From: a virus
Taxonomy: Duplodnaviria > Heunggongvirae > Uroviricota > Caudoviricetes
Strand: one strand, 5' to 3'
DNA: 38,380 nucleotides
IMG/VR virus record: IMGVR_UViG_2713897056_000005
This document shows, one piece after another, positions 935 to 38,380 of this stretch. A program made the translations under genes and the position numbers. The notes under the pieces were generated by a model. The model did not search any database. It worked only from the letters and a program-made list of their open reading frames with translations, and was not told the DNA's origin. Each line of letters begins with the position of its first letter. The first letter of the stretch is position 1.

Positions 935-2620
935 GTGAATATAAACGTCGCCGAATTGTTAAATGGGAATTACATTCTGTTATTATTTGTGGTCCTCGCG
1001 CTTGGGCTATGTCTCGGAAAGTTACGACTTGGTTCGATCCAACTGGGTAATTCCATTGGCGTTTTAGTCGTATCGCTGTTATTAGGCCAACAACATTTCA
1101 GCATTAACACCGATGCGCTTAATCTTGGCTTTATGCTGTTTATTTTCTGCGTCGGGGTCGAAGCCGGACCGAACTTTTTTTCCATTTTTTTTCGCGATGG
1201 GAAAAATTACCTAATGTTAGCACTGGTGATGGTTGGCAGTGCGCTGGTGATCGCCTTAGGGTTAGGTAAGCTGTTTGGCTGGGATATTGGCCTGACGGCC
1301 GGTATGTTAGCAGGCTCTATGACGTCGACACCGGTTCTGGTCGGTGCTGGCGATACACTGCGTCATTCCGGCATGGAAAGCAGGCAGCTCTCACTGGCAC
1401 TGGATAATCTGAGCCTCGGGTATGCCTTAACCTATTTAATCGGTCTGGTGAGTTTGATTGTTGGTGCGCGTTACTTGCCGAAATTGCAGCATCAGGACTT
1501 ACAGACCAGCGCCCAGCAAATCGCCCGCGAACGTGGCCTGGACACTGATGCCAACCGTAAGGTTTATTTACCGGTGATCCGCGCCTATCGCGTCGGCCCG
1601 GAGCTGGTGGCCTGGACCGACGGCAAAAATCTGCGTGAACTGGGTATTTATCGACAAACCGGCTGCTACATTGAACGTATTCGACGTAACGGGATTCTGG
1701 CAAATCCAGACGGTGATGCCGTGCTACAAATGGGCGATGAAATAGCGTTGGTAGGCTATCCCGACGCCCATGCCCGACTCGATCCCAGCTTCCGTAACGG
1801 TAAAGAAGTTTTCGATCGTGACCTTCTCGACATGCGTATCGTCACTGAAGAAGTGGTCGTTAAAAACCATAACGCTGTAGGTAAACGTCTCGCACAACTG
1901 AAGTTGACCGATCACGGTTGCTTCCTTAACCGCGTCATTCGTAGCCAGATTGAGATGCCGATAGATGACAACGTCGTGCTTAACAAAGGTGACGTTTTAC
2001 AAGTCAGCGGTGATGCCCGTCGCGTAAAAACCATCGCCGATCGCATCGGCTTTATCTCGATTCACAGCCAGGTCACTGACCTGCTGGCATTTTGCGCCTT
2101 CTTTGTTATTGGGCTGATGATCGGGATGATCACCTTCCAGTTCAGCACATTCAGTTTCGGCATGGGGAACGCTGCCGGGTTGTTATTCGCCGGAATTATG
2201 CTGGGCTTTATGCGTGCTAACCACCCGACCTTCGGTTACATTCCGCAAGGTGCATTAAGCATGGTGAAAGAGTTCGGCTTGATGGTGTTTATGGCAGGCG
2301 TTGGTCTGAGCGCCGGTAGCGGTATTAATAACGGCCTGGGCGCGATTGGCGGTCAGATGTTGATTGCCGGATTAATTGTCAGTCTTGTGCCCGTGGTTAT
2401 CTGTTTCTTGTTCGGTGCTTATGTATTGCGAATGAACCGCGCACTGTTGTTCGGCGCAATGATGGGCGCACGCACCTGCGCGCCGGCAATGGAGATCATC
2501 AGTGATACAGCTCGCAGTAACATCCCTGCGCTGGGCTACGCGGGCACCTACGCAATCGCCAACGTCCTGCTGACGCTGGCAGGGACAATCATCGTCATGG
2601 TATGGCCAGGATTAGGATAA
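935..2620 (+). CDS. ybjL: Putative transporter YbjL (AAE-family, duplicated membrane domains with central soluble region)
   Basis: 561 aa ORF; hydrophobic N- and C-terminal halves flanking a soluble domain; length and N-terminus ([18 protein letters not shown]) match E. coli YbjL from memory. Apparent GTG start at 935. Confidence 0.85.
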
Positions 2621-2732
2621 AACTGAAGTTGCCCTGAAAATGAAATTTTTTTGCACAACCGCAGAACTTTTCCGCAGGGCATCAGTCTTAATTAGTGCCA
2701 CTGCTTTTCTTTGATGTCCCCATTTTGTGGAG

Positions 2733-2775
2733 CCCATCAACCCCGCCATTTCGGTTCAAGGTTGATGGGTTTTTG
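2733..2775. terminator. Structured hairpin followed by T-run downstream of ybjL
   Basis: cccatcaacc (2733..2742) pairs with ggttgatggg (2760..2769), followed by ttttt; the 17 nt loop is unusually large. Confidence 0.4.
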
Positions 2776-2865
2776 TTGCCTGTTAGATTACTCTCGATAA
2801 AATAATCACTTACTAGCCATATCAGCCTGCAATGGCGACAAAGTGGCGACAGAGAGAGAAAGAGC

Positions 2866-3387
2866 GTGTCCTTATCATTTAGTGACTCAGTAGCAATCGT
2901 CGGAATCATTGTAGGAATTTTGTGTATTGTTGTGGGATTGCCCGCACTTCTAACATTTATCCCACAACGGAAAGAGGCAAAAAGATTACGCAGGGAAAGA
3001 TATGCACAAATTCTAAAAGGTAAAAGTTGGAATAACCTTGGAGTTAACCATGGATTTCCTGAGCCATCACTGGACATACGAATTAACACCGTAGATAACG
3101 CAGGTACACTTCAAGGTGAGATTATCAACTGCCAAAGTAATGTTATGGATTTAGATAAAATAACATTCCATATCAATGGTAAGCTAACCGATAAAGGAAC
3201 TGCATCAATAACACTATGCACTGCTATCGGATGGCGCCAAGTACCGGTGGGAGTTGCGAAATTACGTTATCGCGAAAAAGATGACACACTAGATTTCATC
3301 TATCTGCATGATCATAAATTCAATCCAACCTTATCATGGGAACTAAGCCTCCCTCGGTTTACTACCTACGGACTAGTTGGCTGCTAA
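2866..3387 (+). CDS. Hypothetical membrane-anchored protein (single N-terminal TM helix)
   Basis: 173 aa ORF with N-terminal hydrophobic helix (VAIVGIIVGILCIVVGLPALLTFIP) then a soluble domain; AT-rich; GTG start after a purine-rich tract; lies between host ybjL and prophage ogr. No family recognised. Confidence 0.45.
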   Translation: MSLSFSDSVAIVGIIVGILCIVVGLPALLTFIPQRKEAKRLRRERYAQILKGKSWNNLGVNHGFPEPSLDIRINTVDNAGTLQGEIINCQSNVMDLDKITFHINGKLTDKGTASITLCTAIGWRQVPVGVAKLRYREKDDTLDFIYLHDHKFNPTLSWELSLPRFTTYGLVGC

Positions 3388-3508
3388 CTCTTTGTATATG
3401 GTTCATGCCAGTCTGAACCCAAAAGGTAAATGGCTGCATATCCCTTTCTCTGAATTAAACCAGTAAAAACCCTCCAGCGGTGGGTTAATATTAGTAAGCT
3501 AATTGTTC

Positions 3509-3706
3509 TTAAATTCCGTTCGGATGAGGTGGCGCAGCGCTGATTTTTTGCGGGCGGCACACTGACCGCACAAAAGTCTCATGGGTCACGAAGGTATGTC
3601 CACACTCGATGTTAGTGCACTGGTTGTAACGCTCTTTGGTCAATGAAGATACCTGAAAACTGCTGCGAGTATGGGCGGCACTTCCACACAGTGGGCAAAT
3701 CATCAT
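3509..3706 (-). CDS. ogr: Ogr/Delta-family zinc-finger late gene activator
   Basis: CPLCG...C..C..CGH zinc-finger pattern and KERY motif as in P2 Ogr; start chosen at the ATGATG with GGGGAGAA Shine-Dalgarno 8 nt upstream rather than the longer ORF start at 3739. Confidence 0.8.
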   Translation of the reverse strand: MMICPLCGSAAHTRSSFQVSSLTKERYNQCTNIECGHTFVTHETFVRSVCRPQKISAAPPHPNGI

Positions 3707-3796
3707 TTTTCGAGTTCTCCCCATTTTTGCTAAATTCATAATAATGATACCGTATTATTCCATTTTGCAAACTTAAAAGTTCTCCATTGCGAAGAA

Positions 3797-4897
3797 TCAT
3801 TCTATTTCGAAATCATCAATCCTCACTTCAAGCTCCAGACTGGTCGTAAAACCGTTATCCGGGCTGACGGTATGTGTCAGAGTCGTAATGGTCCATTCCG
3901 CATCATCTATCGGCTGTTTAAAACCACTGACTTTCACTGGCATTTCCGTGTAGAGATCTGCCCGACCTTCCGCCAGTTGTAGCGAGAATGACGCAACGCC
4001 GCGTTGCAGGCGTTCCCACTGCATTTTCGCTGCCCGTTCAGCGTTGCTCCGGTTGGCATAAGTGCGATTAAGTACCAGCACGTTTTCATCCGTACCCACC
4101 AGGTAATCGCCCTGCTTCGCTTCCGGCTCTTTCTTCTGCTTCTTAGTCCTGCGCTTACGCTTCACCGTTGTGCTTTCTTTCTTCGCGGGTTCGCGGGTAT
4201 GCAACCAACTGGCAATTACGCCCGTATAGGCTCCGCGATCTGCCAGGGTAAAGCGGTGACTGTCGCCGTCCTTACGTGTGATAGTGATCACCGGCAGTGG
4301 TTTACCGCTGACACTTTTACTCTGTCCCTGTCGGATGAATAACAGATTGCCATTTTTCACCGACGCAATAGCACCGTACTGGCGCGCCAGCCGCATCAGA
4401 AAACTGCCGTCACTCTCATTAGTCTGGTCTATATGCTCCACGGGCTTATCCGACAGGTCTTTACCCAGTGCCATCTTCAGCTTGTGACGTACGGCTATTT
4501 CCTTCACTACTTCCCCGACGGTGGTCTTGTGCCACGACTTTTCACGGCGGGTATTCAGCGTTTCACGAAAATCAGCACTTCGCGCCCGAATAGTCAGGCG
4601 GTCCGGTGCGCCAGTGTGTTCAATCTCGTCCACCGTGAATGCCCCTTTCGGGAAAAGCGGCTGCCCCTTCCAGCCCAGCGCCAGCGTAATGACCGCACCA
4701 CGGCGCGGCAGCACGATTTTTCCATCGGCGTCGTCCAGCTCCAGATCAAGCTGGTCCGCTTCAAATCCCCGGTTATCCGTCAGCGTCAGCCCCATCAGGC
4801 GGTTGTCCAGCACAGTGGTGATATCCCTGCCTTCAATACTGATGCTGAATGCCGGAGTTTTGTTGCCTTTGTTAAGCAGTTCAGAGCTGAAATTCAC
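3797..4897 (-). CDS. D: Tail protein D (late control gene D family)
   Basis: 366 aa; position downstream of U and adjacent to ogr as in P2; N-terminal region resembles gpD. Confidence 0.8.
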   Translation of the reverse strand: MNFSSELLNKGNKTPAFSISIEGRDITTVLDNRLMGLTLTDNRGFEADQLDLELDDADGKIVLPRRGAVITLALGWKGQPLFPKGAFTVDEIEHTGAPDRLTIRARSADFRETLNTRREKSWHKTTVGEVVKEIAVRHKLKMALGKDLSDKPVEHIDQTNESDGSFLMRLARQYGAIASVKNGNLLFIRQGQSKSVSGKPLPVITITRKDGDSHRFTLADRGAYTGVIASWLHTREPAKKESTTVKRKRRTKKQKKEPEAKQGDYLVGTDENVLVLNRTYANRSNAERAAKMQWERLQRGVASFSLQLAEGRADLYTEMPVKVSGFKQPIDDAEWTITTLTHTVSPDNGFTTSLELEVRIDDFEIE

Positions 4898-10776: not shown

Positions 10777-11349
10777 TCAGGGGGATTCATTGCTCTTATT
10801 TGCCGGAAATTTTCTATAAATTGTGGAAACACCCACATCAAAAATCAGTGCAATACGCTGTCTTGATTCTCCGGCCTCGAGTAAGCGCCCAATCTGTGCC
10901 CACTGTTCGGTGGTCAACTTAGGACGGCGTCCACCTACTCTGCCTTTATCACGAGCTGCAGCCAGCCCCGCCCTGGTACGTTCAACTATCAGTTCGCGTT
11001 CCATTTCTGCCAGGGCCCCCATGACATGAAAAAAGAAACGGCCCATTGGGGTGCTGGTATCAATACTGTCAGTCAGGCTTCGGAAATTCACGCCACGCTG
11101 GCGCAACTCTTCTATCAGCGTAACAAGATGCCGCATACTGCGCCCCAACCTGTCCAGCTTCCAGACGACCAGCGTGTCTCCTGCCGATAGTGTCCTGAGC
11201 AGTTTTTTCAGCCCCGGTCTGTCGGACTTAGTGCCACTGATTTTATCCTCAAAAATTCGCTCACATCCCGCGCAGTTCAGTGCATTACGTTGCAAATCGG
11301 TGTTCTGGTCATTTGTTGACACGCGTACATAGCCAATAAGCATGATCAT
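10777..11349 (-). CDS. Serine-recombinase DNA invertase (Gin/Cin/Pin/Hin family)
   Basis: MLIGYVRVSTNDQ N-terminal catalytic-serine motif, resolvase/invertase core, C-terminal helix-turn-helix (GVSTIYRKF); true start may be the third codon (11343). Confidence 0.85.
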   Translation of the reverse strand: MIMLIGYVRVSTNDQNTDLQRNALNCAGCERIFEDKISGTKSDRPGLKKLLRTLSAGDTLVVWKLDRLGRSMRHLVTLIEELRQRGVNFRSLTDSIDTSTPMGRFFFHVMGALAEMERELIVERTRAGLAAARDKGRVGGRRPKLTTEQWAQIGRLLEAGESRQRIALIFDVGVSTIYRKFPANKSNESP

Positions 11350-11408: not shown

Positions 11409-11424
11409 CGTTGGTTTGGGAGAA
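11409..11424. repeat. Inversion crossover site (invertase-proximal inverted repeat)
   Basis: cgttggtttgggagaa; reverse complement matches 13226..13241 at 15 of 16 positions; resembles gix/hix half-site pattern. Confidence 0.7.
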
Positions 11425-11760
11425 GCGGCAAAACGAAATGTGGGAACAGGGGAAAATCAGATACCAGATATGTCTGCATTCCCATCTGGCAAAAACTGGT
11501 TTCAGTTACCAAGTGGTCATATTGTCCAAATGTTTTCGATGAATGTTTATGGGGCGGACACTAACGGAACTACTGGTAATTTCCCTATTGCATTTCCTTC
11601 AGGTGCACTTGCTGTTAGTGCCTTATGGTCTGATGGCACATTAACGGCTGCTCCGACCTTTAAACTTATGGGGTACACGACAACAAGGACATCAGTAACC
11701 TTAAAAGTATCAACCGGAAATGGTTTGTATGGAACTATGATTATCGCAATAGGAAGATAA
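11425..11760 (+). CDS. Silent alternative tail-fibre C-terminal cassette (promoterless, fuses to the constant part of H after inversion)
   Basis: Frame begins inside the repeat with GLGE, then AAKRNVGTGENQ...; in-frame with H codons LGLGE at the other repeat, so inversion creates an in-frame fusion. Confidence 0.65.
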   Translation, partial: AAKRNVGTGENQIPDMSAFPSGKNWFQLPSGHIVQMFSMNVYGADTNGTTGNFPIAFPSGALAVSALWSDGTLTAAPTFKLMGYTTTRTSVTLKVSTGNGLYGTMIIAIGR

Positions 11761-11761
11761 T

Positions 11762-12205
11762 ATGAATCAATATATTTATTCCCCCTCGGAAAATGCATTT
11801 TATGCTGTTAATTTAAAAAATACTTATGAAGTAAATGGAACATGGCCCGCTGATGCATTAGATATTCCTGATAACATTTCTGTAAAATATATGGCGGAAC
11901 CGCCACAAGGGAAAATCCGAGTTGCAGGGGTAAATGGTTTTCCCACATGGGCTGAAATACCTCAACCATCACATGAAGAACTTATTCAACAGGCAGAATC
12001 AGAAAGACAATTATTGCTTAATCAGGCCAACGAACACATGAACAGTAAACAATGGCCTGGTAAAGCGGCTATTGGTCGTCTGAAAGGTGAGGAACTGGCG
12101 CAATATAATTTGTGGCTGGATTATCTGGACGCACTGGAGCTGGTCGATACTTCCGGTGCGCCAGATATTGAATGGCCTACGCCTCCGGCAGTTCAGGCCA
12201 GATGA
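11762..12205 (+). CDS. Alternative tail fibre assembly protein (silent orientation)
   Basis: 147 aa ORF directly after the alternative cassette; C-terminus (LWLDYLDALELVDTSGAPDIEWPTPP) parallels the active Tfa C-terminus (LDYIDAVTATDTSTAPDVIWPELP). Confidence 0.65.
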   Translation: MNQYIYSPSENAFYAVNLKNTYEVNGTWPADALDIPDNISVKYMAEPPQGKIRVAGVNGFPTWAEIPQPSHEELIQQAESERQLLLNQANEHMNSKQWPGKAAIGRLKGEELAQYNLWLDYLDALELVDTSGAPDIEWPTPPAVQAR

Positions 12206-12779
12206 CATCCGGCGCGGTGCTGGTATCTGTTGCCGTCACCGCGTCAATGTAATCCAGCATGGCGTTAAGTCGGGTTGTTTCTGCCTGCGTCAGTTTCCGT
12301 CCGGCCTGCAATTTCAACTGAATCAGACTAATGGAAGCCATTGCAGTATCAATCAGTGACTGACGTTGTGCTTCTGCCGCGTCTACTGCGGCGCTATGCT
12401 GTGCCTCGGTATCCGTCACCCATTTCTCACCATCCCATTTATCGTATGGCGTTAACGGGGCGATAGTGGTTGTTTTTTCGGGGTAATCACCCGGAGTTGT
12501 GATTTCTTTGGCGTCTCCCGTTTCGGTGTTATAGACAATTTCACCGCGATGGTCTGGCACATATTCCCATGAGTTTAAATCCATCGAACGGCAGATAGCA
12601 TAACCTGCCTTATGTGTGCCAGGGGCATCTAAACAGGAATATGCAGGGATACCGACACCAATGGCAAGATATTCATTTGAAGTGGAAATATATTCCCGTG
12701 TTTCGCCATCATAGTTATAGACGGTAATATTTCCCGCCTTTGTAGCAATAAACTCGCTATTTAATACAGCGTTATCCAT
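12177..12779 (-). CDS. G: Tail fibre assembly protein (gpG/Tfa family), active orientation
   Basis: 200 aa immediately downstream of H; start overlaps the H stop. Confidence 0.8.
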   Translation of the reverse strand: MDNAVLNSEFIATKAGNITVYNYDGETREYISTSNEYLAIGVGIPAYSCLDAPGTHKAGYAICRSMDLNSWEYVPDHRGEIVYNTETGDAKEITTPGDYPEKTTTIAPLTPYDKWDGEKWVTDTEAQHSAAVDAAEAQRQSLIDTAMASISLIQLKLQAGRKLTQAETTRLNAMLDYIDAVTATDTSTAPDVIWPELPEA

Positions 12780-14287
12780 TATGCAGCCCTCACGATATAG
12801 TTAAATGCAATATTCCGTGGGCGAGTATCGGCAGGAACGACATACATTTCACCAATTGCCCGCTCATTAGAGTTGTTCAGCAATAGGCTTGAGCCATTAC
12901 TGTCATGACCCGTAATTAAGATATCATTGGACAAAATAAGTGAGCCCGTACCTGCAGGAATACCATAAATTCCCATATCAAATTTAATATAACCAACACG
13001 CGCGCTCTGTGCAGACATAACGCTGCGACCAGTATCTACTGAACGACCGTCATCCCAGCCACGAATAAACTCACCGCGTAAATCAGGCAATTTATTTGTC
13101 GGGTAAGCCTTTGCCAGTTCCGGGTATTCTTCAGCAGAAAAAGCCGCACCGTTACATTTCAGCCAGCCAGTAGGCGGTGTTGCAGAAGGCCACGGAACAG
13201 GCACACCAACGGGTAATGCCGAACCTTCTCCCAAACCAAGGTATGTGAGAAGACCAGCTACATCCTTTCCACTCAAATTAGTCAGCGTATTGTCCAGCGG
13301 TTGTTTACCTGCCAGCGCATTAAGCATTGTCGTGGCAAAGTTCGGATCATTCCCCAGTGCCGCCGCCAGTTCGTTCAGTGTATCCAGTGCCGCAGGTGCA
13401 GAACCCACCATTCCTGCAATCGCCGATTTCACAAAAGCCGTAGTGGCAATCTGTGTATTATTGACCGACTGCGCCGCCGTAGGGGCTGTTGGCGTTCCGG
13501 TGAGTGCCGGACTCGACAGCGGCGCTTTCAGTGCCAGCGCATTGTTAATGGTGGTACTGAATTTCGGATCATTGTTAATGGCTACGGCTATTTCTTTCAG
13601 CGTGTCCAGCGTGGCTGGCGCACCATTAATAAGAGCCGTCAGTGCCGCCTGAACAAATGCGGTGGTCGCAATCTGCGTGGTGTTATTCCCCTCCGCTGGC
13701 GTTGGCGCTTTGGGTGTTCCGGTCAATGTCGGGCTTTCTTTGGGTGCATACTGTGAATGCGGGTCCGGTGCGGCAAGATGTTTTGCCATCTTATCATCCA
13801 CGAACACCTTCAGCTCCAGTACCTTGTCATCCACATACTTGCGGGTTGCCAGCACGACGGCAGGGTCGATTTTCAGGGTGATATTGTCCGTGCTGCTGGT
13901 AATCAGCACCATGCGCACGGTCTGGGTGCGCCCGCTGCCTTCAGCCAGTTGCGGCTTATAGCTTTCCGGGCAGTTGCCTACGGCAATCAATGCCCCGGAC
14001 TCATCAAACAGACCCACTTCACGTATCCACCAACCACCCTCATTTTCAGGGATCACCTGTTCAGCAATAATCTGGCTGCTGTTCTGCGGGTCGATATAGA
14101 GCATATTCAGCGCAGCCCGGCGTTTCTCATTTACCAGTGCCGTCTGCTTTGCGTCCGGCGCCGACAATGCTCCGCCGCCATCGCCCACCGCCATATGGGT
14201 AATTTTTAGCGGCACACCTAGCGCGGCGGCGCTGGCAAGTTTCGCCGCGCCAATATCCGTCAGCAGGGTATAAAATTTTGTGCTCAT
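12779..14287 (-). CDS. H: Tail fibre protein H (constant N-terminal about 354 aa plus current variable C-terminus)
   Basis: 502 aa; N-terminus MSTKFYTLLTDIGAAKLA resembles P2 gpH; contains internal crossover repeat. Confidence 0.85.
   Translation of the reverse strand: MSTKFYTLLTDIGAAKLASAAALGVPLKITHMAVGDGGGALSAPDAKQTALVNEKRRAALNMLYIDPQNSSQIIAEQVIPENEGGWWIREVGLFDESGALIAVGNCPESYKPQLAEGSGRTQTVRMVLITSSTDNITLKIDPAVVLATRKYVDDKVLELKVFVDDKMAKHLAAPDPHSQYAPKESPTLTGTPKAPTPAEGNNTTQIATTAFVQAALTALINGAPATLDTLKEIAVAINNDPKFSTTINNALALKAPLSSPALTGTPTAPTAAQSVNNTQIATTAFVKSAIAGMVGSAPAALDTLNELAAALGNDPNFATTMLNALAGKQPLDNTLTNLSGKDVAGLLTYLGLGEGSALPVGVPVPWPSATPPTGWLKCNGAAFSAEEYPELAKAYPTNKLPDLRGEFIRGWDDGRSVDTGRSVMSAQSARVGYIKFDMGIYGIPAGTGSLILSNDILITGHDSNGSSLLLNNSNERAIGEMYVVPADTRPRNIAFNYIVRAA
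13226..13241. repeat. Inversion crossover site inside gene H (encodes LGLGE)
   Basis: ttctcccaaaccaagg; inverted copy of 11409..11424. Confidence 0.7.
13304..13729. repeat. Diverged tandem duplication of about 225 bp inside H
   Basis: Protein shows two copies of a roughly 70 aa unit (NNTQIATTAFV...LDTL.E.A.A...DP.F.TT..NALA.K); coordinates approximate. Confidence 0.4.
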
Positions 14288-25602: not shown

Positions 25603-26268
25603 TTAAAGATCCGGATCTACAGGCTCATGATATAGATTTACAGGGTAATGAATAACTTCATAATTCAGTTGAGTAACTGTGTGAACATGCTGGCTATAAA
25701 AAACCAATGGATTTTTTTGACAAGGAGTAATCGTTATAGATTTACAGGCATGAATTCTTGGTGCGAATTTATCTAAATGCGCCTTCCAGTTGCTCATCAT
25801 TTCATTACATTTTCTATTACGAGTATAGATAATCAATCCACCACTTGCGCTGTCTACGGTCCCTGTACTATATCGTTCAGTGAGTTGAGCATACCCTTTA
25901 AATAAATAACTATATGAAGATGTATGTTTTTTGGCTTCGCCATGCCAAATATAATCCTTTAGTTTTATTGTAATATCACAATGTCCGCGCTGATTATTTT
26001 CATGAAATGCTTCAATGCCCATATCTTTATTTTTGATATTGGCCAATAAAATTAAAGTAAGCTGATCTTCTGTTAAATCGAAGTTTAACTTATTTGAATT
26101 CTCTTCTATTTCCTTTACAGCAGAATCAAGTTCAATCCTGACAAATTGTTTGAAATTATCGTACGATTGAAGTGCAAATCTAACACGAGTAATAGAAGCA
26201 TTAATACGCTGAAGAAAAATATCATTATCAATATCAGCCAAACTCATTGCTGCAGACATTTTTAACAT
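25603..26268 (-). CDS. Hypothetical protein, gene 3 of AT-rich cargo operon; possible PD-(D/E)xK-like nuclease motif
   Basis: 221 aa; start ATG overlaps the stop of the upstream gene (TGATG); segment GHCDITIKLKDYIWHGEAKK fits a D...ExK pattern (weak). Confidence 0.5.
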   Translation of the reverse strand: MLKMSAAMSLADIDNDIFLQRINASITRVRFALQSYDNFKQFVRIELDSAVKEIEENSNKLNFDLTEDQLTLILLANIKNKDMGIEAFHENNQRGHCDITIKLKDYIWHGEAKKHTSSYSYLFKGYAQLTERYSTGTVDSASGGLIIYTRNRKCNEMMSNWKAHLDKFAPRIHACKSITITPCQKNPLVFYSQHVHTVTQLNYEVIHYPVNLYHEPVDPDL

Positions 26269-26702
26269 CAGATAATATCCTTTGATTTAGATTCATCTAA
26301 TGTAAAAAAAGGAAATACGAATGACTTATAGTCATACATAAGCTCCCCTGTAAATGGGTTTACTAAAGATTGACTGATTTCCGCCTCAATAACTTCCTCT
26401 ATTTCAAGTTCTACAGGGTCATGAAAATCATCAATGAACCAATAATTGAGTTTTAAAAAATCAACCTTTGGGCTACAAAGAATTTGTATGGCCGGATAGA
26501 TAACCTGCTCATACGTTTCTGGCTGTAAAACCTTATTATAACCACCAGCTATATTAAATAAATCCTTATAACTTAAAGCTATATTTGATGATTTTTTAGC
26601 CCTTGCCTCGATTTCATCGTACAAATAGCAAGCTAACGCCCCAATTTCAGGGCGTTCTGCACACATTTCTTTGATGATCTTGGGCATATCACCATCCTTC
26701 AT
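26268..26702 (-). CDS. Hypothetical acidic protein, gene 2 of cargo operon
   Basis: About 144 aa from the ATG at 26702 with GGAG Shine-Dalgarno; Asp/Glu-rich. Confidence 0.5.
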   Translation of the reverse strand: MKDGDMPKIIKEMCAERPEIGALACYLYDEIEARAKKSSNIALSYKDLFNIAGGYNKVLQPETYEQVIYPAIQILCSPKVDFLKLNYWFIDDFHDPVELEIEEVIEAEISQSLVNPFTGELMYDYKSFVFPFFTLDESKSKDII

Positions 26703-26714
26703 TGCTGACTCCAA

Positions 26715-27821
26715 TTATAATATCAGCTTTGTGAGGGTTTCGAAATCATCTTTGGATATACATTTACTTAATATAGCATAGTTAACAGGAGAGCAACTAC
26801 TCCCTCCTAGATGCCTGCGGAGTGTTCCCGGAATGATAAGCTCTACGTTATCCGCTAATTGCAGTTTTGGATTATTTCTATCAACTCTAATTCCAATACG
26901 ATACAAACCAATACTGCCTACTGCTTTGATGCCTTCCTTATTAAACAAATCATCACGTAAGTCTTTAGTGGCCACATTTTTCTTTTCTTTATGCGTAGTC
27001 CCCTCATTCGTCAAAAATGACAAATCAAAGACTTTATAGCTTAATTTTGAATAAGGCAATGAATTTTGTTTGAAAATTGGCTCAATTAACGGATAAAAAT
27101 CTTTTTCCGATGATTTAAATTCATAACCGACATGATTATACAATTCACGAATAATGTTACTCTTTGCAAAAGTAACATTATCACCAATAATATTACCATT
27201 AGTATCTACCAAAACATGAATTTTATTAGTAACAGAGTCTAATATACAGACATCAAAACATTGTCGCTTTTCTTTTCGCTTTGCAATAATTTCATCAAAC
27301 TGCTTGTATTGCGCAAGTGCTGACGGGGGAATTTTTTCTCTTACAACTAATTCTCTGACAGATGAAAAAACAAGTATTGACTGGGTGTTTTGAATAGAAT
27401 AATTAACAAGTTCAGGTTGATTTTTTACAGCATTTTGCAATTGGACATCATCAAGGATCGAATCAACCAATAATGATGGTTGATTCATCAAATTCCATTG
27501 AAAACTAAATCTGTCATTTAGTGTTTTAATTACACTATTATCTACAGTCAAACTAAATATTGCTTTTTCACCATAAACGACCTGACCAAAAATTAGGTCA
27601 TTTACGTTTGCCATAATGCCATCAAACTTTTGCCTATCTTTACTTTTAAGATCAATGAGGCTTTCTAGTATTTTTTCGTTTGTTGCTTCACGCCCCCTAC
27701 CTGTTGGCAGCCCTAAAGACGCAATAATTGGCCTTGCAACGTTCCATGTGAAACGTTCAGTTAAGGTCAAGATCGACTTTAACTCAGACTCAGAAAGCAC
27801 TACTGGGACACTACCTGTCAT
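26715..27821 (-). CDS. Hypothetical protein, gene 1 of cargo operon
   Basis: About 368 aa from the ATG at 27821 with AGGTG Shine-Dalgarno (a GTG at 27830 is an alternative start); no recognisable ATPase or other motif. Confidence 0.5.
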   Translation of the reverse strand: MTGSVPVVLSESELKSILTLTERFTWNVARPIIASLGLPTGRGREATNEKILESLIDLKSKDRQKFDGIMANVNDLIFGQVVYGEKAIFSLTVDNSVIKTLNDRFSFQWNLMNQPSLLVDSILDDVQLQNAVKNQPELVNYSIQNTQSILVFSSVRELVVREKIPPSALAQYKQFDEIIAKRKEKRQCFDVCILDSVTNKIHVLVDTNGNIIGDNVTFAKSNIIRELYNHVGYEFKSSEKDFYPLIEPIFKQNSLPYSKLSYKVFDLSFLTNEGTTHKEKKNVATKDLRDDLFNKEGIKAVGSIGLYRIGIRVDRNNPKLQLADNVELIIPGTLRRHLGGSSCSPVNYAILSKCISKDDFETLTKLIL

Positions 27822-27980
27822 AACTTGCACCTAGTCATCCAAAAAGCAATAAGAATTTGCTCTTGTCTTAATTTATCCTTCGATACCTAACAAATTACCT
27901 CAATGTTGAAAAAATTTGCAAGCCATTTGCTTCTAAAAAGCGACCTTACTCAGAGTGTTACAAAACTAAGCGAGCGCGCG

Positions 27981-28123: not shown

Positions 28124-28552
28124 CAGCCAAGAGAAGTGAAAATCCGTATCTGAATGACCACTTAAAAAACGAAATATACGGGTTTACAAACATGGAGGTT
28201 CACTGTGAGCGAAGAGCGGAAGTTGCCTTAATTAGGTTACATGGGGGACAAATGTTACTAGCATGATTATGCGGGATACTTACAATACCACGCCTTAATT
28301 GCTTTGTTATCCCACCAGAAAGTCATGGAGCCGCAACTGATAAGAAAATTGTTGTAAAAGTGCCAGTTGGTTACTCTGAATTTCTGCTTAGCCAGGAGAG
28401 TGCCTGCGTTGTCAGCGAATGCGTAAGTTGATCCTTCAATGCAGAAATAGTTCAATTTATTAAACAACACTCCTGGCGGGATTAACGCCGCATCTATAAT
28501 GCGTGAGAGTGTGCATGCGCAATTTCAGCAAAAAAAATTGAAAATAGCGCTA

Positions 28553-29525
28553 CTAACTTCCCTTTATTTTTAGTTCGTTAAAAATATCTTCGATTACCAA
28601 TCCATTTTTAATTAAATGCTGCACAATATTTTCATATTCTTTGAAATTGTCAATATGCAAGCCATGATCTTTTTCTTTAGCAATTCTCGTGATCACATGT
28701 ACGCTATCTGTATAATCAATCTTATTTTTAAGAGCATTGAGCAAACTTATACTTGGATTTAAAGTTGAGATTAGTTTACCAAACTCGGTTTGTAACTCTT
28801 TGGATTGATGAGTATTAATATAATCTTCAATAAAAGCATCAAAATCTCCTTGCAACTCAACTTTAAGGTTTGCTATATCCTTCATAATATTTTCTAACTC
28901 AGAAGAGTATGGCCGACCATGTTTAAAATCGAATAAAAAAAGATTTGCTTTCTCAATACATTCGCAAATATAAAAAACTGTATAAAGGGAATATTTTTGC
29001 TTAACTTTTAATTTTCCATAGGCGTAGTGAACCAAAAGATGCTTAGCATTAATAACATTTTTATTTTTTGAAAGTTGATTGTTAGTTGCAGGCGGATAAA
29101 TTACCACATCAACATTATCTAAATTTTGAAAAGTTTTTAAAATAAGAGCCTCAACCTTATTCCAATCGAGGCCCCCATTACCACAGCCTAAAGGTGGTAT
29201 TGATATTGATGTAATTTTTTTTTTCATCTATAATTTTTGCTAAAGATTCAAGGCCTTGCGAGATAAAATCATATGTTGATTTTTTTCTCCAACTATCTTT
29301 AGTGGGAAAGTTTACAATTATTTTTCCCTTTTCCTCTACAATTAAAACCTGTCCAATTTTCATTGTACCAGTGGCGCATGCTCTCTTATAAACTTCGAAA
29401 TTATAGGGAAAAGTTTCTTTAAAAGCCAAAGCAATACCCTTTCCCATGACTCCTTGGCAGTTTACAGCATTCACAAGAGCTTGCGATGTAGAGTTTAGAA
29501 GATTTCCGCTTGCATACTTAATCAT
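28553..29525 (-). pseudogene. darG: DarG-like macrodomain antitoxin, split into two ORFs at an A10 tract
   Basis: 29178..29525 encodes the macrodomain N-terminus (ALVNAVNCQGVMGKGIALAF) and 28553..29227 continues it (SIPPLGCGNGGL) plus a C-terminal domain; frames switch inside the A10 run at 29215..29224. Confidence 0.65.
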
Positions 29526-29529
29526 AGAA

Positions 29530-30111
29530 TTAGAACATATAAGTGTTGATCGTTATCAATATACTTAATCCTTGTTGTTTTATCAACCCTTCAACATATT
29601 TTTTTTCGTTATCATTTTTGACAAAGATGCAATGGAAATTTTTCGGCTCGACCGTTACACTTGATAAACACTCAGCCATACATACAGATTTGCATTCTGC
29701 ATTTTTATAATCCCTTATATTCATTAGCTCCCAGTCAATTTGGGCCATTCCTTGTTCATAATCTAAGAGGTCTATAACAGAACTGGTGGATAATGGATGT
29801 TTAGGGATAACTTTCCAACCATTTTCTTTGGCAAATGCCCGACAAACCGAAATAATACAAAATGATTTTTCCTTATGATCTTTCAGGACTCTTCCATCAA
29901 ATGGATTCTTAGTAAAGAAATGAAAAGGAACCATTGTTTGCAAATTTAATGCTTCGCGACCTGTTATTATTTCACCGTCGGCCACATCAACAAACTCACC
30001 TTTTACTGATGCACGAGATCTTAATCCTGTATCTAAAATACTAGGTAGATTATCCATACATGTTAAATGATAGAGAAGATACTGATCTTCAATTCTTTTC
30101 CTTTCGCTCAT
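29530..30111 (-). CDS. darT: DarT-like DNA ADP-ribosyltransferase toxin (DUF4433 family)
   Basis: N-terminal LLYHLTCMDNLPSILDTGLRSR matches the DarT signature as I recall it; 193 aa; 4 nt upstream of the macrodomain gene; GGATGA Shine-Dalgarno. Confidence 0.65.
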   Translation of the reverse strand: MSERKRIEDQYLLYHLTCMDNLPSILDTGLRSRASVKGEFVDVADGEIITGREALNLQTMVPFHFFTKNPFDGRVLKDHKEKSFCIISVCRAFAKENGWKVIPKHPLSTSSVIDLLDYEQGMAQIDWELMNIRDYKNAECKSVCMAECLSSVTVEPKNFHCIFVKNDNEKKYVEGLIKQQGLSILITINTYMF

Positions 30112-37139: not shown

Positions 37140-37327
37140 CTTTTGCTTTTATATCTGCGCCTAAAATAAAAATGAGCCACAGGTTAACCGCAAAAGTTAC
37201 ATGATCACATAGCAAAAAGAATAGCCTACTTCATTATGGCTTCAGTGAGATGTATGGTCGCAGGATTTCATACATTGACACTGGTTATACATACAGTAAA
37301 AATGCTCTCTATTGGAGGGCATTTTTT

Positions 37328-38380
37328 ATGGCTGTACGAAAACTCACCACAGGAAAATGGCTTTGCGAATGTTACCCCGCCGGACGTAGTGGGCGTCGTG
37401 TGCGTAAACAATTCGCCACCAAAGGCGAAGCACTGGCTTTTGAGCGTCACACGATGGAAGAAACCGAAGCAAAGCCCTGGCTAGGTGAATCAGTGGATCG
37501 TCGAACACTGAAAGACGTGGTTGAGCTATGGTTCAAACTACATGGTAAATCACTGACTGCTGGGCAGCATGTCTATGACAAATTGCTGCTGATGGTTGAC
37601 GCTCTGGGCAATCCCCTTGCAACTGATCTAACCTCTAAAATGTTTGCCCACTATCGAGATAAACGCCTGACAGGTGAGATCTACTTCAGCGAGAAATGGA
37701 AGAAAGGAGCAAGCCCGGTCACCATTAACCTGGAGCAAAGCTATCTAAGTAGTGTTTTTAGCGAACTATCCCGCCTGGGCGAATGGTCGTATCCGAACCC
37801 ACTGGAGAACATGCGAAAATTCACCATCGCAGAAAAAGAGATGGCATGGCTTACCCATGAGCAGATTGTTGAATTACTGGCTGATTGCAAACGTCAGGAC
37901 CCAATTCTGGCACTGGTAGTTAAGATATGCTTAAGCACAGGCGCACGCTGGCGAGAAGCCGTAAATCTTACTCGTTCACAGGTGACCAAATACCGAATTA
38001 CCTTTGTAAGAACGAAGGGGAAGAAAAACAGAAGCATCCCTATCAGTAAAGAGCTTTACGAAGAGATCATGGCGCTTGATGGGTTCAATTTCTTCACAGA
38101 CTGCTATTTTCAATTTTTATCCGTGATGGAAAAAACGTCTATCGTGCTCCCTCGCGGTCAACTCACACACGTTCTGCGCCATACGTTTGCGGCGCACTTC
38201 ATGATGTCGGGTGGAAACATTCTGGCCTTACAAAAAATTCTCGGACACCACGATATAAAAATGACTATGCGTTACGCACATCTGGCACCGGATCATCTGG
38301 AAACGGCGCTCCGTTTCAATCCTCTGGCAACGCTGCCAAGTGGCGACAAAGTGGCGGCAGCGGTTGGCATTACCCCGTAA
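37328..38380 (+). CDS. int: Tyrosine integrase (P2/186 family)
   Basis: Start at MAVRKLTTGKW; C-terminal catalytic region with R...HxxR...Y (LRHTFAAHF, MRYAHL); stop codon is the last 3 nt of the window. Confidence 0.85.
   Translation: MAVRKLTTGKWLCECYPAGRSGRRVRKQFATKGEALAFERHTMEETEAKPWLGESVDRRTLKDVVELWFKLHGKSLTAGQHVYDKLLLMVDALGNPLATDLTSKMFAHYRDKRLTGEIYFSEKWKKGASPVTINLEQSYLSSVFSELSRLGEWSYPNPLENMRKFTIAEKEMAWLTHEQIVELLADCKRQDPILALVVKICLSTGARWREAVNLTRSQVTKYRITFVRTKGKKNRSIPISKELYEEIMALDGFNFFTDCYFQFLSVMEKTSIVLPRGQLTHVLRHTFAAHFMMSGGNILALQKILGHHDIKMTMRYAHLAPDHLETALRFNPLATLPSGDKVAAAVGITP

Follow-up and report, generated by a model that had tools for sequence, protein, structure and literature searches.

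The viral record IMGVR_UViG_2713897056_000005 of IMG/VR (Caudoviricetes) is a stretch of 38,380 nucleotides, called the window below, which holds a P2/186-like prophage together with flanking host DNA, and the present analysis concerns one small gene close to the end of that prophage (positions 2866..3387, plus strand). This open reading frame (ORF) starts with GTG and encodes a protein of 173 amino acids (aa), for which a transmembrane helix (residues 9-32), a basic juxtamembrane helix (33-50) and an eight-stranded β-barrel (about 54-172) are predicted. The same coding sequence (CDS) is annotated in the RefSeq record of Escherichia coli S40 as a 'hypothetical protein' (WP_139816873.1). An earlier sequence-only reading of the window had described an AT-rich 173-aa frame with a single N-terminal transmembrane helix between ybjL and ogr; the coordinates were matched exactly, and the GC content was found to be 40.2%. 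That reading had considered the frame as prophage end cargo, as an independent islet or as a host gene truncated by integration. The comparisons reported here show with high confidence that it is dispensable accessory cargo ('moron'-type) of a P2/186-like prophage, located in the slot next to the attachment (att) site.

On the host side the ORF is preceded by ybjL (935..2620, plus strand), a gene of the aspartate:alanine antiporter family recognized from the ORF listing, the RefSeq annotation of the identical region and synteny with E. coli K-12, and lying in flanking host DNA outside the element. Between ybjL and the ORF there is a full-length copy of the host small RNA (sRNA) gene rybB (2700..2778, plus strand; Rfam RF00110, 99.6 bits, E 7.9e-21, model positions 1-79 of 79). 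On the phage side the first core gene is ogr (3509..3739, minus strand), the zinc-finger activator of the late genes, which is convergent with the ORF; RefSeq gives a shorter form of 65 aa (3509-3706), and the Pfam family Ogr_Delta was found in the homologous loci. It is followed by the phage late control gene D (3797..4897, minus strand; ORF listing and annotation), the start of the P2-type tail module. At the opposite end of the window the tyrosine integrase gene int (37250..38380, plus strand) has its stop codon at the last base, and the int-proximal att junction is situated just beyond the window.

The att core was placed by a three-way comparison of the K-12 attB site with the ybjL-side and int-side junctions of the S40 prophage, which is 99.95-99.98% identical to the window over its full length except for one inverted segment. 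The window ends at the integrase stop codon, and the int-side junction was therefore read from S40. The window agrees with K-12 through the hairpin and the T-run of the rybB terminator and then diverges immediately. Beyond int in S40 (...CATAAATGGGTTTTTTGTTATCTAAAAC...) the integrase stop codon is followed by a terminator hairpin and by the same 14-bp core, after which identity with the host resumes in K-12-type sequence continuing into rcdA. The core common to K-12 attB and to both S40 junctions is ATGGGTTTTT(T)GTT, which occupies positions 2765..2777 of the window and forms the ogr-proximal junction. The target of integration is the terminator 3' end of rybB, between ybjL and the ORF. The sequence-only reading was right in placing the ORF near the prophage end, and the junction it had described beside ybjL has to be moved to rybB, the true target, which it had overlooked; it had also allowed for an att core on either side of the ORF, and the empty-site comparison it had proposed settles this on the ybjL/rybB side, the K-12 site placing the core in the rybB terminator, upstream of the ORF. 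P2-like insertions at rybB have been recorded in E. coli W, B and Crooks (PMC3032704).

Two observations on the site itself are worth recording. The T-run of the rybB terminator (2770-2774) has five T in the window versus six in S40, K-12 and all the homologous loci, which may reflect either a real variant of the terminator and att core or a homopolymer error. Moreover, many genomes (e.g., E. coli O157:H7 86-24) match rybB and eight further bases (through GTTGCCT; 2700-2782) before diverging, suggesting that further elements, whose arm is not the same, may also use the rybB att site.

Between the core and the ORF, positions 2833..2854 (plus strand) contain tandem 11-bp direct repeats, TGGCGACAAAG and TGGCGACAGAG (repeat family D8), and a matching pair, AAGTGGCGACA and AAGTGGCGGCA (family D3), is present on the other arm, within the 3' end of int. 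The repeats at 2833-2854 are conserved upstream of the ORF homologues and, by analogy with attP of P2 and 186, are putative arm-type binding sites of the integrase on the P' arm. Since both the core and these repeats lie upstream of the ORF, its start falls within the prophage, about 90 bp from the end and immediately past the P' arm, between att and ogr, as expected for end cargo. The arm repeats also bear on the start codon. The position of the start is conserved among homologues (ATG in Klebsiella aerogenes and in family member P0003, GTG in the window and in P0001). An upstream ATG start ('MATKWRQR...') was considered and discarded, because in the window it falls in another frame and the peptide corresponds to translated integrase arm repeats; the longer N-termini ('MATKWRQR...') in some homologue gene calls represent an over-extension into these repeats.

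The distribution of the gene in E. coli agrees with this location. The DNA of the ORF was found in 10 of 5426 complete E. coli genomes, in one copy each, 100% identical and in all cases at this site beside ogr. The P' arm is present after rybB in 181 genomes, and about 171 related rybB prophages do without the ORF. Alignment of the window with E. coli XH988 (L001) by blastn showed homology through position 2866 and again from 3564, with 62 bp in that relative versus 697 bp here; the cassette concerned (2867..3563) consists of the ORF, the spacer and a variant 3' end of ogr, replaced by the 62 bp in relatives devoid of the ORF. In K-12 the order at the empty site is ybjL-rybB-rcdA, with no ORF. 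Because only ten genomes carry the gene, some 171 related prophages lack it and the K-12 site is empty, the ORF is to be regarded as dispensable cargo and not as a gene of the host. It lies inside the att bounds, is dispensable between conserved core genes and deviates in base composition, as prophage accessory genes do. There is next to no chance that the ORF is a normal gene of the host, part of one cut by integration, or a separate islet: the position beside host DNA and the deviant composition are all that speak for it, against which the K-12 site has no such sequence, 5416 of the 5426 genomes lack the ORF and none has it without ogr or phage DNA beside it, the frame is on the phage side of the core and arm sites, and all of its relatives lie inside P2/186-like elements. 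The truncated host gene and the independent islet were accordingly abandoned. The presence of the same ORF in genomes free of the prophage, which would have pointed to a host gene, was looked for in K-12 and among the 5426 E. coli genomes and was not found.

The ORF differs sharply in composition from its surroundings, with 40.2% GC overall and 32% at third codon positions (GC3), versus 51% GC in ybjL, 54% in gene D and 50% in the whole prophage; the flanks of the ORF have 51-54% GC, and all of its homologues are in the range 38-41%. At its base composition an open frame of 173 codons has a chance probability of about 9e-6, and comparison with homologues in other genera gave ratios of nonsynonymous to synonymous substitution (dN/dS) of 0.10-0.27, with synonymous sites near saturation. 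On account of these two results the ORF is a real protein-coding gene under purifying selection. The lack of a known domain and the great rarity of the family would suit a frame arisen by chance or decaying without function; such an origin is nevertheless very improbable in view of the figures just given, of the conserved start position and the confident predicted fold, and of the undamaged frame seen in otherwise much reduced remnants of the prophage.

The encoded protein contains one hydrophobic segment, at residues 9-32 (Kyte-Doolittle maximum of 2.95 over 19 residues), and no second one, in agreement with the single N-terminal transmembrane helix noticed earlier. The residues before this helix carry no positive and one negative charge, and the 21 residues after it nine positive and two negative charges, so that by the positive-inside rule the N-terminus would be outside and the C-terminus inside, leaving the bulk of the protein in the cytoplasm. 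The AlphaFold2 (AF2) model of the full-length protein, built from an alignment of seven sequences (mean predicted local distance difference test score (pLDDT) 79, predicted template modelling score (pTM) 0.68), shows one long helix at 5-50 followed by a β-domain. The domain alone, modelled from 21 sequences (pLDDT 86.9, pTM 0.81), shows a meander of eight strands, the last of them preceded by a short helix, and the barrel is thus predicted to be an eight-stranded up-and-down structure of avidin/calycin-like type. The nearest neighbours in the Protein Data Bank (PDB) given by Foldseek were avidins, shwanavidin, GID4, the N-terminal barrel of PvdP, nitrobindin and lipocalins, with E-values of 0.018-0.3, TM-scores of 0.35-0.54 and 7-17% identity; the full-length model gave E-values of at least 0.018, and the domain-only model E-values of at least 0.04 with TM-scores of 0.40-0.54. 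No significant structural match was found in the PDB (Foldseek, full length and domain) or in BFVD, and a sequence-profile search of the PDB gave nothing below E 0.39. The homology and structure search suggested by the sequence-only reading yielded a tiny family of relatives, described below, and no significant domain or fold match.

The residues W55, N57, G59 and G105 (173-aa numbering) are invariant in the two subfamilies into which the relatives fall, and H150 and N153 are found in most members only. The conserved positions are mostly glycines and aromatic residues, with no evident catalytic constellation. A YLHDH motif together with Cys89 and Cys173 is specific to subfamily 1; a metal site built on these residues was rejected, as His148, Asp149 and Cys89 vary in subfamily 2. 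A lipoprotein was likewise discarded, the sequence being devoid of a lipobox and Cys20 not being conserved. The window protein gave no significant match to Pfam, PHROG, PADLOC or NCBIfam models, the best being a holin (E 0.053), PglZ (E 0.045, also the best match in PADLOC-DB v2) and CtaJ (E 0.039). The holin assignment was not retained, because phrog_1350 matches only at E 0.053 and over the transmembrane region, and the cassette of HP1-family holin, lysozyme and LysB/LysC sits far away. Weak, sub-threshold matches of family members to PycTM and two-transmembrane (2TM) effector models (best E 0.0014) were attributed to the transmembrane helix and not taken as evidence; for member P0021 the PycTM match on the analogous Pfam model spans residues 6-44. 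Four members of subfamily 2 scored 13.7-23.9 bits with the third and fourth domains of TcaA (PF22820, TcaA_3rd_4th), versus a gathering threshold of 27, and the window protein did not match this model; the assignment was rejected.

The family is very small. A profile search of 5.8 billion proteins gave about 21 clusters, all from Enterobacterales; a word-indexed search of the same 5.8 billion proteins gave six clusters, and an exhaustive HMMER search of 1.84 billion representatives gave eight matches, two of them spurious. Two leucine-rich-repeat proteins (P0010 and P0012), matched repeatedly by one β-hairpin segment, were discarded as spurious. Among 185,579 species representatives of the Genome Taxonomy Database (GTDB) only one, Huaxiibacter chinensis, has a member. 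No match to the ORF was obtained in INPHARED (50,697 phage records, DNA or protein, tblastn), nor to the family in IMG/VR. In a plasmid collection the single match, weak and partial, was to a circular P2/186-like phage. The element concerned (L023, Pantoea dispersa pESL4.2, NZ_CP109855.1; 30.8 kb) bears the record label of a non-mobilisable plasmid; its genes are of P2/186-like phage type (CI, CII, Fil, int and baseplate V), and from them it looks like a circular phage genome; just after int it encodes a distant relative of the ORF of 108 aa. In a further predicted protein, from a Logan contig (P0019, 305 aa), the first 232 residues are the N-terminal part of BamB and the remaining 73 correspond to the C-terminal end of the ORF product at 100% identity; this BamB-ORF fusion was judged most likely an assembly chimera.

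The members of subfamily 1 (46-92% identity) show the arrangement ybjL-rybB-core-ORF-ogr in E. coli, Huaxiibacter, K. aerogenes and uncultured relatives, and a more distant member of the same subfamily, P0004, is located directly after the 3' end and terminator of a tRNA gene. The members of subfamily 2 (about 25% identity) come from Salmonella, Enterobacter and Siccibacter. In all six members of subfamily 2 looked up, the gene comes right after int and overlaps the int stop codon (ATGA), in the order CI-(cargo)-int-ORF, and these loci are found at a prophage end next to a tRNA(CAU) gene, which, as it lies between mug and yqjH, is taken as ileX. The order int-ORF-ogr-D was directly seen in one subfamily 2 locus, from Enterobacter (L017). 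All members with a readable neighbourhood are thus confined to P2/186-like prophages, where they occupy the int-att-ogr interval and are oriented like CI-int. The two subfamilies are set apart by the location of the crossover core, which in subfamily 2 follows the gene, so that the latter stays with int upon integration. In the lineage of the window the core is upstream of the ORF; in the circular phage, as seen in the reconstructed attP, int immediately precedes the core and the ORF and is co-directional with the latter. As the core lies between int and the ORF in this lineage, integration moves the gene to the opposite (ogr) end, about 90 bp past the intact rybB gene. Three lineages whose prophages have suffered large internal deletions (Huaxiibacter, K. 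aerogenes and the contig L013) have kept the ORF intact, a hint that it benefits the host.

Other genes were noticed in the loci of the relatives. In Enterobacter, tandem P2/186-like remnants with repeated CII-CI-int units are stacked at the tRNA(CAU) gene beside mug (L018 1-8528; L017 4156-8528). In one CI-int-ORF operon a TIR-like effector (PADLOC, E 1.3e-9) lies between CI and int (L021 5158-5970), and in another locus a gene of 254 aa with a weak CARF-like match (E 2.9e-4) overlaps the stop codon of the homologue (L022 7531-8292). The degraded rybB prophage of K. aerogenes which keeps the ORF (L005 7361-9100) has a restriction gene of GmrSD type (DUF262/DUF1524) between a portal fragment and CI.

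The signals which could govern transcription of the ORF were examined in the intervals on either side of it. A consensus scan found a σ70-like promoter candidate between the core and the ORF, TTGCCT and TAAAAT separated by a 16-nt spacer (2776..2803, plus strand; 9 of 12 matches), which may be a feature of the attP arm instead of the ORF's own promoter. Downstream of the ORF the candidate hairpins are weak and the terminator scan is at chance level; a hairpin with a T-run in the ORF-ogr spacer (3466..3486, minus strand; -10.6 kcal/mol, z-score -1.4, a weak value) is the likely terminator of ogr. Any read-through into the ORF, from rybB or, in the circle, from int, must cross terminator hairpins.

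It may be asked whether expression of the ORF depends on the state of integration, the gene being read in the lysogen through σE-dependent read-through from rybB, an arrangement that would link a phage-encoded membrane protein with envelope stress, and in the excised circle as part of the CI-int transcript. The ORF is co-directional with rybB and starts 87 bp past its terminator, P0004 likewise stands behind a tRNA 3' end and a terminator, the ORF follows int in the same direction in the reconstructed attP, and no convincing private promoter emerged from the consensus scan. Against this, rybB keeps its full terminator hairpin and U-run, the attP sequence ahead of the ORF has a hairpin and a T6 run (z-score -2.1), and the promoter-like TTGCCT-16-TAAAAT element is present, so that such a dependence is considered improbable.

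The gene is retained in the deletion remnants and, in subfamily 2, is co-oriented and translationally coupled with CI-int, and for these reasons its function would seem to be exerted in the lysogen and not in virion production. As a tentative reading, it is proposed that the ORF encodes a membrane-anchored factor, expressed in the lysogen, for exclusion or abortive-infection defence. The sequence-only reading had noted that junction morons of this kind often serve exclusion or host interaction, which is still plausible here. The product would be a single-pass protein of the inner membrane with an N-terminus of eight residues outside, followed by the transmembrane helix and, in the cytoplasm, by the strongly basic helix and the barrel of about 120 aa. 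The component bound by the barrel, on the inner face of the membrane, would come from a phage or from the host; the transmembrane helix would tether the protein or oligomerise, and the gene, expressed in the lysogen, would act in conflicts between phages, by superinfection exclusion or abortive-infection defence. The confidence stated at the outset belongs to the cargo in the att-proximal slot; the complete explanation, function included, is held at the tentative level given here. It is favoured because the slot is near a reported defence hotspot, the neighbouring cargo in relatives includes the TIR-like effector and this prophage also carries DarT/DarG (DarTG) in its A-Q hotspot. According to a recent report, part of the int-attP-ogr slot is a minor defence hotspot (PMC13586616), and in the same work 15-32% of uncharacterised P2 accessory proteins scored as defensive with machine-learning predictors.

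Several points weigh against this proposal. The published base rate of defensive genes among uncharacterised P2 accessory genes amounts to only those 15-32%, the window protein matches nothing in PADLOC, PHROG, Pfam or NCBIfam, and the fold neighbours (avidins, GID4, the PvdP barrel and lipocalins) are non-significant and none of them is a defence protein. The extreme rarity of the family speaks against a broadly advantageous function. As to expression, promoter-like sites in the region are at chance expectation and the 2776-2803 site is also present in relatives devoid of the ORF, and the ORF is behind a terminator hairpin in both the integrated and the circular forms. A protein for lysogenic conversion or for the life cycle of the phage, with no role in phage exclusion, is the main alternative, possible though rather doubtful: a membrane-tethered binder altering envelope or transport physiology, or a modulator of lysis, establishment or the timing of excision, expressed with CI-int during the establishment or maintenance of lysogeny. 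The evidence from position and selection is the same for it as for exclusion, the coupling to int in subfamily 2 fits a role in establishing lysogeny, calycin- and avidin-like barrels are typically binders of small ligands, and the gene stands directly downstream of rybB, an sRNA of envelope stress. On the other hand, the approximately 171 close prophages at the same site which do without the ORF indicate that neither integration nor excision nor lysis requires it; elsewhere the prophage has a full lysis cassette and control genes of CI and Cox type; searches with Pfam and PDB profiles gave no ligand-binding signature of avidins or lipocalins in the sequence; and retention in remnants unable to produce phage argues against a role confined to the phage cycle. 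The exclusion or abortive-infection reading is kept as the favoured one. A further step, that the family is a previously unrecognised single-gene anti-phage or exclusion system, with a transmembrane anchor and a cytoplasmic avidin-like barrel, specific to the attP-proximal slot and with expression then dependent on the integrated or circular state, is speculative and on balance unlikely.

Small membrane proteins, some of them single-pass, serve superinfection exclusion in temperate and virulent phages, among them HK97 gp15, P22 SieA and T4 Imm. The ORF product resembles this type as a small inner-membrane protein encoded by a prophage moron, with expression expected in the lysogen; unlike them, its bulk is a predicted cytoplasmic β-barrel instead of a periplasmic or membrane-embedded domain. 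No homology to characterised exclusion proteins was detected, with no PHROG match below E 0.05, no tblastn match in the 50,697 phage records and no significant match in BFVD. With avidin and streptavidin, lipocalins, nitrobindin and the GID4 and PvdP barrels the model has in common an eight-strand meander, and these are its top PDB neighbours in Foldseek with both models. In contrast to avidins and lipocalins, which are secreted, the barrel is tethered by a transmembrane helix and predicted to be cytoplasmic, and no profile match connects it to them.

The ORF also has much in common with the accessory genes of P2 (old, tin, Z/fun) and with the defence hotspots of P2-like phages (Rousset et al.), being a dispensable, AT-rich gene carried singly at a set position among the core genes, and, like hotspot cargo of P2, it is swapped in and out between near-identical phages. 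It differs from old, tin, fun and every PADLOC model in having no sequence or profile similarity to them. Going by the cited text on P2 hotspots, subfamily 2 is exactly in the reported int-att slot, whereas the ORF of the window lies on the ogr side of the core, a position absent from the hotspots given there. The rybB prophages of E. coli W, B and Crooks (Archer et al. 2011, PMC3032704) share the target and the phage type, with variable cargo; the copy at rybB in E. coli B carries the retron Ec86, and as described in that paper the cargo is a retron and the ORF is not mentioned. As counted above, most rybB prophages lack the ORF. AT-rich accessory genes at prophage ends in P2-like phages are well known, and so is rybB as an sRNA target of integration. 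What is new is modest: an unannotated and very rare family with an architecture of transmembrane helix plus small barrel, strictly tied to the attP slot, and the occurrence of the same cargo at either end of the prophage, depending on the position of the core.

Some other features of this prophage deserve mention. A segment of 1.84 kb (11411-13251), an invertible tail-fibre/tail-fibre-assembly segment beside a Cin/Gin-type recombinase (10777-11349, minus strand), is inverted compared with the otherwise 99.95%-identical prophage of S40, which would imply host-range switching. The hotspot between gpA and gpQ contains DarT (29530-30111) and the macro-domain protein DarG (together 28553-30111, minus strand). 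DarG is split in the window into two ORFs (28553-29227 and 29178-29525) versus one CDS of 972 bp in S40; since loss of the antitoxin should be lethal, this frameshift is probably an indel sequencing error. In the same hotspot, three unnamed genes encoding 221, 148 and 371 aa (25603-27830, minus strand) lie between the portal gene and DarG, and a fragment of an IS5-family element is found at about 28280-28400.

The boundary of this prophage is now precise, with the core in the terminator of rybB, which corrects its description as a ybjL junction. The occurrence of the same cargo at opposite ends of related prophages, according to the position of the core, provides a clear example of how the att position reshapes the transcriptional context of an accessory gene. 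If the ORF product is indeed an exclusion or defence factor, it would represent a new membrane-anchored effector architecture and would extend the hotspot to the ogr side of att; otherwise it would be an ordinary prophage 'hypothetical protein'.

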